Below, piece by piece: positions 44,531-54,550 of a stretch of 64,000 nucleotides of DNA. A program made the translations under genes and the position numbers. The notes under the pieces were generated by a model, which searched no databases, was not told the origin of the DNA, and saw only the letters and a program-made list of their open reading frames with translations. Every line of letters starts with the position of its first letter. Position 1 is the first letter of the stretch. Source of the DNA: Haliotis cracherodii (Eukaryota); assembly GCF_022045235.1 (NCBI RefSeq), contig NW_027266308.1:59148001-59212000 (forward strand), given 5' to 3'.

Positions 44531-44662
44531 CTGATAGGCCCTCAGTTCCTGTGGGCAATACAACCAGCCATGAAGGACAGTTGGACACCTGAGATCGAGC
44601 AGGCATGGTCCGACCTTTTCAAGCTCATTTCCCACATCATCAAAGAGGCTATGCTACTGTGA
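44531..44662 (+). CDS. Globin X-like gene, last coding exon 3 (helices G-H), intact copy; not in the ORF track
   Basis: Acceptor cctttttttcAG| at 44529-44530, phase 0, matching the exon-2 donor. Encodes LIGPQFLWAIQPAMKDSWTPEIEQAWSDLFKLISHIIKEAMLL* (43 aa + TGA at 44660-44662) with the globin WTPE..xAW H-helix motif. Confidence 0.92.
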   Translation: MIGPQFLWAIQPAMKDSWTPEIEQAWSDLFKLISHIIKEAMLL

Positions 44663-47286
44663 AGGTTCACATGTACGAATGGTGTAAGGCACGGACACAG
44701 GATATTCGTCCCTTGACTACTTACAAAACCCCACATCACAACAGATGTGAGGTGCGCAGTGGAACCATGCGAATTCGTTGTCAAAGGGACAGGAGAACAC
44801 TTCGAGATCTAGGGGCTGATCGAAGATTTACGGTACATTCGAGATATATTATTGTTCTAAACTACCCTGCAAAAGAAAGTTTACACCCATGTCTGATGGT
44901 CGCTTGGGTAAAACAAACAAGTAATGTATACGGGTATCATAGTTGTATTTTGGACCTTAATTTGTTTTGTTTCTGTGACTGTTTTCAGCATAGTAACATT
45001 TTGAAAACGTTTATAATTTCTTTGTCAAATGTAATTTTGAATCGATACGTTCTTTTGCCCGGCAGTTTATATAACGAAAGTTCACAATATTAGGATACAG
45101 ACAACACGCATTTGAAGTCGATGTGATGGGACAAACGACAAGATCTGTATGGTATTCGGAAGAATTGATGTGTGGTACAGCTGAACATTGAAAGAGCCGT
45201 GAATTGTTCGGCACATATCCTGCCATGCCTCTCTGTTTATGAATCTTGCCAGTAAATATAGTCTGATTGATCAGGTAGATTCTGTACATTGTGCAGTTGC
45301 AACATCTACCCCTGCCACACTACTTAGTCTGGCAGTCATTATGCTTCATTTAATCCATGTGATATAAAGCCGATTGTAATGTATTGAAATTGATAAAACT
45401 TTGTAAAAGTGTATATGTAATATATTGACATATATATTCTTGTGCCATGAATACCCTTAAATTAGTTTCCACACGACATAGCTGCATGCATTGATACGGT
45501 GAAACCTCGTTACCACGAAATCCTGGGGATTATCAAATAGTTTTCGAGGTGGACCAACACTGAAGTGGCGTGTCGACAAGAAAGACAGTCGTGTCAGTGT
45601 TATTTTATTCGAAACCCACAAGAATGCAGCCCGTCGGCAGCAATTCTTTATGGAAAGGCCAAAAAAGTGTTTTTCTGCTGATTGCTGCCCTGACGAAACA
45701 ATCCTCTACTTGTGACGTCACCTTTATTTCAAGAACTCGTTTTTGAAACATCAATTTATTTTGATAACTTTTATAGAGAGTTTATAATACCGAAATAACA
45801 CATAGATGATGAATTGTTGATATCAGAGCTGGCGAAATATCCCTGCTTGTACAACATTGATTCCACACACGATAATCACATAGACTGGAAGCCGATTTTT
45901 GAAAGGCCACGAATCAACTGTTTGAAGGTACGAGTGGTAAGTCATGTGTCCGTTTAAAGGTCATAAACCTTCCGCGAAAAGATGTTGCAATTAAAACAAA
46001 CGAAATATACAAATGTACAACAAAAGAATACTTGCAGTGGTATAAATTACACTTCCTGCTTTCATATCACAGAAAAATAAATGCCCGTCTCTTTGTAACT
46101 GTAACACATTTAGTCTATATTTTTCTTCTACGATAGAGATACATACTTGTAATTGTTTTCCTGTATAAAATCAGTGATTCTACTGTAATGAAACACATGT
46201 TATTCATTAAACATTCAATATGAAAATCAAATAACTTCTTTTACCTTCAATTCGAATTTTCTTAACTGCTGCACTGCTTGAGTGTTAGTGACAAAGAGTA
46301 CTCAGATATACATGAACTACGTCACTCTTAAACCATAATACTGACACAGTCGCTGCCGAGACCTACAAGTTCAATCGTCTTTACCCATTATTCGAGTTAT
46401 ACAGATTACTAAACGAGTCCCGTTCTGTGCCATTTATATAGCAACGTGTGTATATTAAAATGTATCTAACCAGAGAAAGCGAGTGAGGTATGTTATGAGA
46501 TACACGTTGTATTAAAAGTGGTATCCAGAGGAACGAGTTGGTTATTTATTTATTACTCACTTTGCACATTATCTAAATTCTATGTTGAAAACAATACGTC
46601 GCTTGTTTGAAGATGGCATATGAATACAATGTTCCTAGCTGTTCTCTCAAAGTGCAAACTGACAATAAAGTGCACAGCGGTTTCCGAGATCGATTGTAAG
46701 AAAAGATAACATGCACACTCAAAACGTTCGTTAATAACAAAAATAACCAGCTTCATAATATCAAACTCGGTTCAGTGTAGGCGAGGGGGGCCTGAAAGAC
46801 TATCGACTCATCGAGACAATCAGTCATGTGATGATGGCTATGTGATTTCGTACGAGTCAGCAGGTAGTTTTTATGTTAATATGAAATTGATTATAATTAC
46901 CGCTTCGCAACATCAATACAGTTGCACGAAAGATTCGCAAAACGGGATCTGATCGGTTGAATGAGGACGACATATTTTATGATTGTCCACTTGGTCCAAG
47001 AGGAACCTCACTTGCAAAACGAAGTTCAAGGAATTAGAGGCAACTTTGAATGTGGTGATGCTTCGACATCATGTGAGTTCAGTACCGATGCTCTGAATCT
47101 TTATGACACCTCTATGCTTGCAATACTGCGAACAAAAGTGCGAGTTCCTATACTCTGTATTTCAAAGGTATGTGTTCGCGACTCCTGCAATAGATGAAAA
47201 AACGGACAAATTCATTCAATAAAAGTCAGATTATAAAACAGCGAGTTTTAAGATTATGCCCCAGCATATCAGTATCATAAACATCA

Positions 47287-47523
47287 GTTGGTTTGTTTGT
47301 TTGTTGTTAAACGCTCAGCAATATTCCAGCTATATGACGGCGGTCTGTAAATAATCGACCAGACCATCCGGTGATTGATATCATAAGCATCGATCCACGC
47401 AATTGGGATCGATGACATGAATCAACCAAGTCAGCGAGCCTGACCACCCGATCCCGTTAGTCGCCTTTTATGGCAAGCATGGGTTGCTGAAGACCTATTC
47501 TAGCCCGGAATCTTCACGGGTCT
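47287..47523 (-). mobile_element. SINE-like family D (V-domain-like core, (AAAC)n tail)
   Basis: Minus strand GACCCGTGAAGAT.CCGG...AAGGCGACTAACGGGATCGGGTGGTCAGGCTCGCTGACTTGGTTGA...TAGCTGGAATATTGCTGAG...AACAACAAACAAAC. Copies at 27031-27251(+), 31213-31470(-), 35800-35998(-) and 63348-63608(+). The V-domain assignment is tentative. Confidence 0.85.
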
Positions 47524-52700: not shown

Positions 52701-54418
52701 AATGTGTCTATTTCAATATTCCTCCACTTAACTTGTTAACGAAACAATTACTGAAGAAACCCCTTGCATAAGGACTTCTATATACGATATATTTGCGCAT
52801 TTTCCTTGGCTAATGGAGTTAAATGGCCTAAAATAGATTTTGCGATGTGGTTGTCATGGAAAAACCAACTGAAATGTCGGTGGATGGAAATTGTAACAAG
52901 ATATCCCCTAAGTGAACCCCACATGCACTTCTTCATGTTATTACGGAGATTTACAATAGTTAAAATAGTTACAATAGTTAAAATACATGGCCGACACAAA
53001 CAGAGCAAAGTGATGAATACTAGCACACAAGCATCTGTTTTATTTACATATGCCAATGTTCATGCCGTTGACAAGATGCCTAATGAGTAGTTCGTAATCC
53101 GTACCGAACCTGAACACTGGCTTGTATATAATCAGAGGTAATAATAAGACTGAGGTAAACGAACGTACCACGGGAACATAGCATCGGCATATCATCCCGC
53201 AGTGTTATGGGTTATAGCCACATTTCAATATAGCCGTTGATGGACGCCAACTCTAATTACAGGCGACAGATTCCTTTAACCATATGTTGATCCGCAAGGA
53301 TCAACCCTGGCCTGAAAGTGGTGAGACTGATTGAATGACCACTCGATCAACCACACATCTGGACATATTTCTCCGGGAAGCAGACATTTGGAGGATCGAG
53401 CTATCTCTGCAGTTAAAAGAATGTATCAATATTATGTTTCACTGGACGTTTTTCATGTTTGAATAAATCCCCTTAATAGCAGATGTTGGTGTTCTTCTCG
53501 AATCCATCGTACCATCAGAGGCGAGATATCCTCGTTTAGACCCTTTGCGGTGCTTACATCGAACCTTATTTTACTTTCTTTCACAAAAAAAGAACGACAT
53601 CAATATCTTTAATTTTTTAAACGTGAATGTAAAAGGTGGTTGTCTGGGTGTAAACAGAAGTGATAGTTAGGGAGTTGGTTCCTTCGCCGCAGTGAACAGT
53701 GTTCCAGTTATATAGGAAAGATTAATGACAACTTAAAAAAAGCCAAGTTACGTTTTTCACATTTGTGAAACACAAGAGCACAGGTATGATGACATGTCAA
53801 GGATCATTAGTAATGACATGTCAGCAATCTTATATTACACCCCACCACAAGCATTTCCTCTAACAGATAAATGATGTAATTTCACAGTCAGTTGCCGATC
53901 CTTCTGCCACTGGGCCACGAAATCAGTATTCGGAACCACGACACGCCTGGCCAAGGGGAGGTGATAGAATAGGGGAGCGTCGGGCGTACATGTAGGTGTA
54001 CAGTCAATTAATGAATTTTGTAATTGGCAAAGTGACGTGAGATGCATTGAGGGTGGTAATATTTCCATTGATTTCCGATCGTCTCGTTTACATTTCATGT
54101 GTCCCGCGAAGTTTCTGGGTTAGAATTGCTTCTTACGCAACCAGTCTTGTTGTAAAGGGCGACTCACGAGATTGGGTGGTCAGACTCGCTGACGTGGTTG
54201 ATGCATGTCATTGTATCCCAGTTATGTAGATCGATGCTAAAAATGTCAATCAGTGGATTGTCTGGTTCAAACTCGATCATTTACAGACGCCATCATAGAA
54301 CTGAATATGAATGTGGAGTTAAAGAACAACAAACAAACAAATCGTATTTATGTTACCGTTGTCCAATTCAGCATGTTGATACATAAACATGTGCTTATGA
54401 AGTGACTCCACTTTTCAA

Positions 54419-54550
54419 CTGACAGACTCCCAGTTCCTGTGGGCAATACAACCAGCCACGAAGGACAGTTGGACATCGGAGATCGAGCAAGCATGTTCCG
54501 ACCTTTTCAAGCTCATTTCCCAAATCATCAAGGAGGCTATGCCACTGTGA
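54419..54550 (+). pseudogene. Duplicated globin exon 3 (probable pseudo-exon)
   Basis: 132 nt with 12 differences from 44531-44662. Reads LTDSQFLWAIQPATKDSWTSEIEQACSDLFKLISQIIKEAMPL*. The acceptor is cttttcAA instead of AG, and the conserved H-helix Trp is changed to Cys. Confidence 0.85.

Follow-up and report, generated by a model that had tools for sequence, protein, structure and literature searches.

The subject of this report is a globin X gene of the abalone Haliotis cracherodii and, above all, a second copy of its last coding exon, found in a stretch of 64,000 nucleotides (nt) that we call the window (contig NW_027266308.1, positions 59,148,001 to 59,212,000 of the forward strand; positions without a prefix count from its first letter). 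Exon 1 lies outside the window, at G000:C45:59138872-59139116, and the introns measure 41,126 and 12,062 nt, in phase 2 at the end of exon 1 and phase 0 at the end of exon 2. The last exon is present twice, as exons 3a and 3b, and we consider it highly probable that the downstream copy, 3b, is dead and decaying neutrally, carried in an old tandem duplication of 8-10 kb that likely arose by unequal crossing-over between repeats resembling short interspersed nuclear elements (SINEs). The coding features within the window are as follows:

32243..32468, + strand: exon 2 of the globin X gene, 226 nt, with an AG acceptor and a GT donor
44531..44662, + strand: coding part of exon 3a, the functional last exon, with the G helix from residue 158, the H helix and the stop
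54417..54418, + strand: acceptor position of exon 3b, very probably dead, AG changed to AA
54419..54550, + strand: exon 3b, decayed copy of the last coding exon, very probably a pseudo-exon

Exon 2 (32243-32468) matches the globin domain PF00042 in a Pfam search (E 2.2e-14) and carries F94, H114 and H146, which we take to be the CD1 phenylalanine and the distal (E7) and proximal (F8) histidines; all three are present in 53/53 aligned proteins. The exon 3 peptides alone are not recognised by Pfam. The introns sit in the B12.2/G7.0 pattern, within predicted helices 72-86 and 153-174 of a structure model that has eight helices and a predicted local distance difference test score (pLDDT) of 82.2. 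Joined, exon 1, exon 2 and exon 3a translate exactly into P0083 (200 amino acids, named for Haliotis cracherodii), and the gene product is inferred to be one predicted membrane-anchored globin of that length. By inspection of the sequence, its N-terminus, MMGCFNSKK, fits an acylation motif of MGXXXS plus Cys3, provided that the second ATG is used. Two adjacent ATGs open the gene (G000:C45:59138872-59138880, L035), and MMGC is found in 4/4 Haliotis entries; the second ATG, with A at -3 and G at +4, is the sole start that would expose Gly2 for myristoylation, so that a choice between the two could yield both membrane and soluble forms. The N-terminus of the paralogue upstream, MGLHHS, has no Cys3.

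Exon 3a is preceded by ...TTTTTTTCAG, a T7 tract followed by CAG, and 3b by ...CACTTTTCAA, with 12/17 and 10/17 pyrimidines respectively in the tract. The acceptors, AG before 3a and AA before 3b, are thus as an earlier description of this DNA made from its letters alone (the sequence-only reading) had given them, and its account of the coding differences holds as well. The two exons agree at 120/132 nt (91%), with no indel, the same length and frame and the same TGA, and differ in ten codons, of which eight code for a different residue (I>T, G>D, P>S, M>T, P>S, W>C, H>Q and L>P, from 3a to 3b) and two are purely synonymous. Counted by nucleotide, the 12 differences comprise eight nonsynonymous and four synonymous changes, two of the replaced codons holding an extra silent change. 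A 321-nt probe around 3a has exactly two matches in the 1.18-Gb genome, 3a and 3b; no further copies of exon 3 were found genome-wide by a DNA search that skips common words, no third copy or older unit lies in the 214 kb around the window, and a search with the antisense reading frame of 3b found no orthologue of it in other species.

P0003 (H. rufescens) has exactly the 3a peptide, while P0081 (H. asinina) and P0082 (H. rubra) each depart from it at a single residue, outside all eight sites changed in 3b, so that all eight amino-acid changes belong to the 3b branch. Against them stands a neutral expectation of 8.8, obtained from 101.7 nonsynonymous sites and half the intron divergence, which gives a ratio of 0.90 (95% confidence interval (CI) 0.39-1.78): amino-acid change on 3b has proceeded at the neutral rate. 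The relaxed selection proposed from the letters alone is therefore supported. Three of the four silent differences (54478, 54490 and 54532) arose on the species' own 3a branch, and the resulting contrast of eight nonsynonymous to one synonymous change on 3b with none to three on 3a gives a Fisher p of 0.018, the placing of 3b's one silent change being uncertain. The changed residues include P161 and W183, invariant in 53/53 proteins, and G160 (52/53), in an alignment that took in 53 of about 100 retrieved proteins, close relatives included. At six sites the residue now found in 3b is seen in 0/53, and at sites 177 and 192 in 3/53 and 1/53, while the changed columns are as conserved as random sets of columns (0.66 vs 0.64, p 0.43).

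Assembled transcripts tell us which last exon is joined to exon 2. In 4/4 runs, spliced contigs match from exactly 44531 onward, another 141 to about 1250 of their letters falling elsewhere, and in 3/4 runs loose contig ends read the end of exon 2 followed by the start of 3a; because they carry spliced junctions, these contigs derive from mRNA. They show use of 3a and are compatible with rare use of 3b. One contig per run fits the 3b region at 80% likeness, and it has the 3a letters at 54476, 54496, 54523 and 54543 in 4/4; no 3b-specific contig appeared at that likeness in 4/4 runs, which had been found via 3a and in whose contigs rare forms are lost, and 4/4 left the bin 55436-56099 uncovered. 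Of 23 runs listed, seven were aligned. With the gene at a depth of 6-48, and only run X1 matching the window's own sequence, we do not count this absence as evidence. Pieces of contigs extend, with gaps, to 48439, 48449, 48400 and 48244 in the four runs, none of them spanning the whole 3' untranslated region (UTR), and from these we place the end of the transcript:

44663..48480 (end approximate), + strand: inferred 3' UTR of 3a, about 3.8 kb, from contig pieces
48461..48466, + strand: AATAAA, probable distal poly(A) signal of 3a, a weak hint from contig ends
58625..58630, + strand: copy of that AATAAA in the second duplication unit, intact

An ATTAAA stands at 48439. The 3' UTR (44663-48480) holds repeat insertions and further AATAAA motifs at 46076, 46664 and 47218, which are possible alternative poly(A) sites, and its part 46410-47200 has an inverted 65% match to about G000:C45:59111260-59111980 (- strand), which lies between the two globin X genes; the two are probably copies of an old repeat of low copy number.

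Exon 3b did not arrive alone. The sequence-only reading had spoken of a partial gene duplication, and two collinear units, linked by 19 blocks, bear this out; it had passed over their extent, 8.4 and 10.2 kb, and the SINE-like repeats that bound them:

40158..48524, + strand: duplication unit 1, 8367 bp, covering the 3' part of intron 2 together with exon 3a and its 3' UTR
48525..58688, + strand: duplication unit 2, 10164 bp, with repeat insertions of its own
40165..40300 (end approximate), + strand: left SINE-like repeat with a tRNA-like head, its downstream flank common to the middle copy only
48532..48660 (end approximate), + strand: middle SINE-like repeat, the duplication junction, with a right-like upstream flank and a left-like downstream flank
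58696..58800 (end approximate), + strand: right SINE-like repeat, decayed, its upstream flank common to the middle copy only

Unit 1 ends about 60 nt after the AATAAA at 48461, near the contig ends, a weak hint that the duplication likely carried along the last exon entire, both the UTR, about 3.8 kb long, and the poly(A) signal included. By substitutions the units have diverged at p 0.174 in the intron (549/3149), 0.169 in the UTR (360/2134) and 0.091 in the exon. We read the bounding repeats as SINEs from their tRNA-like head and dispersed copies, although no family name could be matched in the accessible part of PMC4758252; likeness is 78-81% among the three heads and 84% among ten other local copies. 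The flanks are more informative than the repeats themselves. Over 220 nt upstream, the middle copy resembles the right one (z 28.5, 0/500 shuffles) and hardly the left (z 1.5, 40/500), whereas downstream it resembles the left (z 7.9, 0/500) and hardly the right (z 1.9, 22/500), and this swap is likely the trace of unequal crossing-over between repeats flanking exon 3, for which it is the expected pattern. A faint flank likeness (z 1.4-2.4) raised the idea of an older 'unit 0' upstream of 40158, which was rejected. Within the units, the intronic block 40984-41651 differs from its partner 49824-50515 by 10.0% substitutions, against 16-21% in other intron blocks; apart from a piece of 35-75 nt it is not a dispersed repeat, and it is possibly a gene-conversion tract or a constrained element. 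Unit 1 alone has a 26-bp minisatellite at 43083-43349, and unit 2 has a 55-nt C-rich run at 49197-49251.

The duplication is also old. Contigs from other species, aligned at a likeness of at least 88%, differ from 3a at 37/1033 letters (X3), 44/1254, 42/632 and 35/840 (X19), and 52/922 (X11), that is by 3.5-6.6%, a range biased downward by that threshold, against about 17% between the units. Of 40 difference positions listed, with 364 more beyond them, 33 were entered, and at these 3b sides with the relatives at 12 and with its own species' 3a at 14, being unaligned at seven; the other seven were dropped because X1 also differed, because X11 did not share the change or because they lay inside repeats. 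The age of the duplication is likely three to four times that of the split from those relatives, and hence it is no fresh event in transition.

How such an exon would come to be silent can be set out simply. In the ancestor, the end of intron 2, exon 3, the 3' UTR and the poly(A) signal would have stood between two repeats, and recombination between misaligned repeats would have doubled everything from one to the next. The downstream copy would then lie past the first poly(A) site (3b stands about 6 kb beyond the probable signal of 3a), and transcripts would be spliced to 3a and cleaved before 3b was reached; being beyond that site, 3b would have been free of selection from the start and was likely silent from birth. 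Its acceptor, pyrimidine tract and conserved residues would subsequently have decayed at the background rate. The sequence-only reading saw 3b as caught between alternative last exon and pseudo-exon; the neutral rate, the loss of invariant residues, the position of 3b past the probable poly(A) signal of 3a and the age of the duplication lean strongly towards the latter.

Several observations weigh against this account and should be set beside it. Under a neutral model, an intact frame with no stop and a conserved TGA has a probability of only about 0.075, roughly 1 in 13 (0.62 x 0.16 x 0.76), with an indel rate taken from intron blocks that may be too high for exon-like sequence. The confidence interval of 0.39-1.78 leaves room for early constraint, and the synonymous change assigned to 3b could equally sit on the ancestral 3a branch. 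Two CAGs that might replace the lost acceptor survive (12/17 and 10/17 pyrimidines), as does the copied AATAAA. The poly(A) site is placed from contig ends only, in a UTR that has three other AATAAA motifs. A 5-nt stretch before the left repeat head, finally, is common to the other two repeats (60-nt flank z 2.35, 9/500), which may mean that there was one ancestral insertion and that a short remnant of it stands at a third place.

Among the alternatives, the one that survives best, improbable as we judge it, is that 3b serves as a minor alternative last exon, reached by skipping 3a or reading through its poly(A) site, by way of a CAG ending at 54425 or 54433:

54423..54425, + strand: CAG, the first AG after the probably dead site, giving an exon start at 54426, out of frame
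54431..54433, + strand: in-frame CAG, giving an exon start at 54434, with 10/17 pyrimidines

The second of these was indeed found where the sequence-only reading had proposed it as a rescue acceptor, but it ranks behind the first, which that reading overlooked together with the in-frame CAG of 3a. By the first-AG scanning rule for acceptor choice, the out-of-frame CAG at 54423-54425 (12/17 pyrimidines) would be favoured; its use would append an unrelated tail of 43 amino acids (aa). The in-frame CAG would remove residues 158-162 of the G helix, which lie inside predicted helix 153-174, and an AAG giving a start at 54403 (8/17 pyrimidines) would run into an immediate stop. The in-frame CAG has its counterpart in 3a at 44543-44545, and indeed the AGs at +7 and +15 are both common to 3a and 3b, so that the would-be rescue sites are no innovation of the copy. 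In favour of the idea are the fair pyrimidine tracts at both CAGs, the intact AATAAA at 58625, and the preserved frame and stop, and duplicated last exons with alternative poly(A) sites are a known class, with 77 human C-terminal cases in the accessible part of PMC8373072. Set against these are the neutral rate of amino-acid change, the loss of P161, W183 and G160, the position of the deletion within predicted helix 153-174, and the use of 3a by every junction-bearing contig seen. A folded globin from the in-frame CAG is unlikely, as the structure model would have helix 153-174 cut and W183C, in helix 177-199, retained. Such splicing would be expected to give a membrane-anchored globin with little chance of folding or binding heme, or else to act as an unproductive sink through which less globin is made. 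We regard as very doubtful, in particular, a live, low-level 3b form made through a cryptic CAG, that is, an N-acylated globin X with helices A-F kept and G and H broken or foreign. Were it real, it would be a heme-less membrane decoy, or else an unproductive splice or poly(A) switch by which globin X is adjusted in certain tissues or under hypoxia, and alternative use of the exon would be a novel route to a second C-terminus in a membrane globin that is still poorly understood.

Slightly less probable again is the idea that 3b once worked as an alternative last exon and died later, at the step from AG to AA. It can draw on the lower bound of the rate ratio, which extends down to 0.39, on a frame that would be intact in only about 0.075 of cases under neutrality, and on the block formed by the exon and proximal UTR, which is 10.3% diverged against 16-21% in most intron blocks. 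This low divergence fits constraint on the 3a side alone (9/132 vs the half rate of 0.087, p 0.54), the substitutions in 3b do not avoid conserved columns, and a block that is intron throughout, 40984-41651, shows just as little divergence, 10.0%. An assembly artefact, with two haplotypes placed in tandem, was held unlikely by the sequence-only reading on the grounds of divergence and unit-specific insertions, and we agree to the point of regarding it as negligible, since 17% substitutions and many indels separate the units, far above the 3.5-6.6% seen across species, and the insertions specific to each unit stand alongside a chimeric junction of biological structure.

A pseudo-exon from partial gene duplication, as we take 3b to be, is ordinary genome turnover, and its weight for the function of the gene is small. 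Its modest value is as a clean mollusc case with a mappable SINE junction and a clear reason for the silence of a downstream last-exon copy from birth; it is a warning to annotators as well, 3b being an exon that gets a globin score. The locus seems to be undescribed, but of a known kind. No account of an abalone globin X was found in the literature, where Haliotis globin duplication papers do not concern the locus by title or start of abstract and coverage of subscription journals was thin, and no duplicated-last-exon switch in an abalone globin gene was found in the literature searched. Three same-strand copies with swapped flanks on the middle one are typical of repeat-mediated non-allelic homologous recombination of the Alu-Alu type, with the difference that the abalone repeat is a mollusc tRNA-headed SINE of about 130 nt whose copies are 78-81% alike. 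Partial duplications are reviewed in PMC3449122 (accessible part). The tandem last-exon duplications of Martinez Gomez et al. 2021 (PMC8373072) have, as far as the available text goes, the same origin, a 3' coding exon with its own poly(A) signal, but there both copies are spliced and are often deeply conserved, whereas 3b has no canonical acceptor, changes neutrally and has lost invariant residues. The globin 'mirages' of amphioxus (Ebner et al. 2010, PMC3087553, accessible part) are tandem copies of intron-exon boundaries with apparently undisturbed splicing; those are minisatellite units of about 150-160 bp, while the abalone case is one unit of 8-10 kb with a whole last exon and SINE-like bounds.

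The sequence-only reading had called the gene globin X-like, and of this name the globin stands, while the formal label globin X-like (GbXL) does not. We assigned the family by identity to labelled sequences, the closest of which belong to globin X (GbX), clade III. Lottia P0004, with 83% identity over exon 2, is Lgi_73010, to which the supplement of PMC7771090 (Song et al. 2020) gives the clade label 'three', and in the accessible part of that paper clade III is globin X and clade II globin X-like. P0047 and P0033 match, as judged by eye, the PhuGbX (Pediculus) and whitefly GbX sequences in those supplements of PMC7457136 that were available. On this comparison the gene belongs to clade III and is not a GbXL (clade II) gene. 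It has in common with GbX the B12.2/G7.0 introns, the invariant F94, H114 and H146 and, if the second ATG is the start, an N-terminal M-G-C motif with an extension, and differs from it in having a decayed duplicate of the last exon. The GbX genes of arthropods and vertebrates typically also have an E10.2 intron, which the abalone gene does not; exon 2 is unbroken across the E helix, as in two other clade III-type exons of the same genome, and other mollusc matches likewise run continuously through exon 2. That intron, typical of GbX, is also missing in centipede and scorpion GbX (PMC7457136, available portion). GbXL genes have the same three-exon B12.2/G7.0 structure and a predicted N-acylation according to the same portion of that paper, but the abalone sequence fits the proteins labelled GbX. 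N-acylation is predicted there together with a suggested role in protecting membranes from oxidative stress.

The neighbourhood holds other globin genes. Upstream of the window's gene (G000:C45:59138872-59192662) lies a complete globin X paralogue in tandem, at G000:C45:59054431-59082374, and on the same contig, 120-150 kb beyond the window, are two exons that resemble clade II (GbXL) globins, at C45:59333019-59333303 (+ strand) and C45:59360284-59360520 (- strand), whose likeness to Lgi_128314 was judged by eye. The limpet has two models of clade III and two of clade II whose names all carry the number 61, presumably a scaffold number, which suggests a GbX-GbXL cluster conserved in gastropods and perhaps a relic of the ancient GbX/GbXL duplication. 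This cluster of two GbX genes and two GbXL-like exons, apparently present in the limpet too, may matter more for globin evolution than exon 3b does. A third globin X-type gene is found on another contig, at G000:C16:13471844-13476143, with an exon 2 that is 59% identical, and further globin exons occur on C23 and C56 and at C45:55517325.

Elsewhere in the window, intron 1 contains a decayed mariner/Mos1-like transposase fragment at 28138-29020 (HTH_48, E 0.003, below the cut-off), and self-complementary palindromic elements resembling miniature inverted-repeat transposable elements lie at 17014-17333 and 25620-25796. The broken frames at 60680-61257 have no significant Pfam match and resemble, on our assumption, the C-terminal endonuclease region of a non-LTR (long terminal repeat) retrotransposon, and a run of 141 N occupies 61924-62064.

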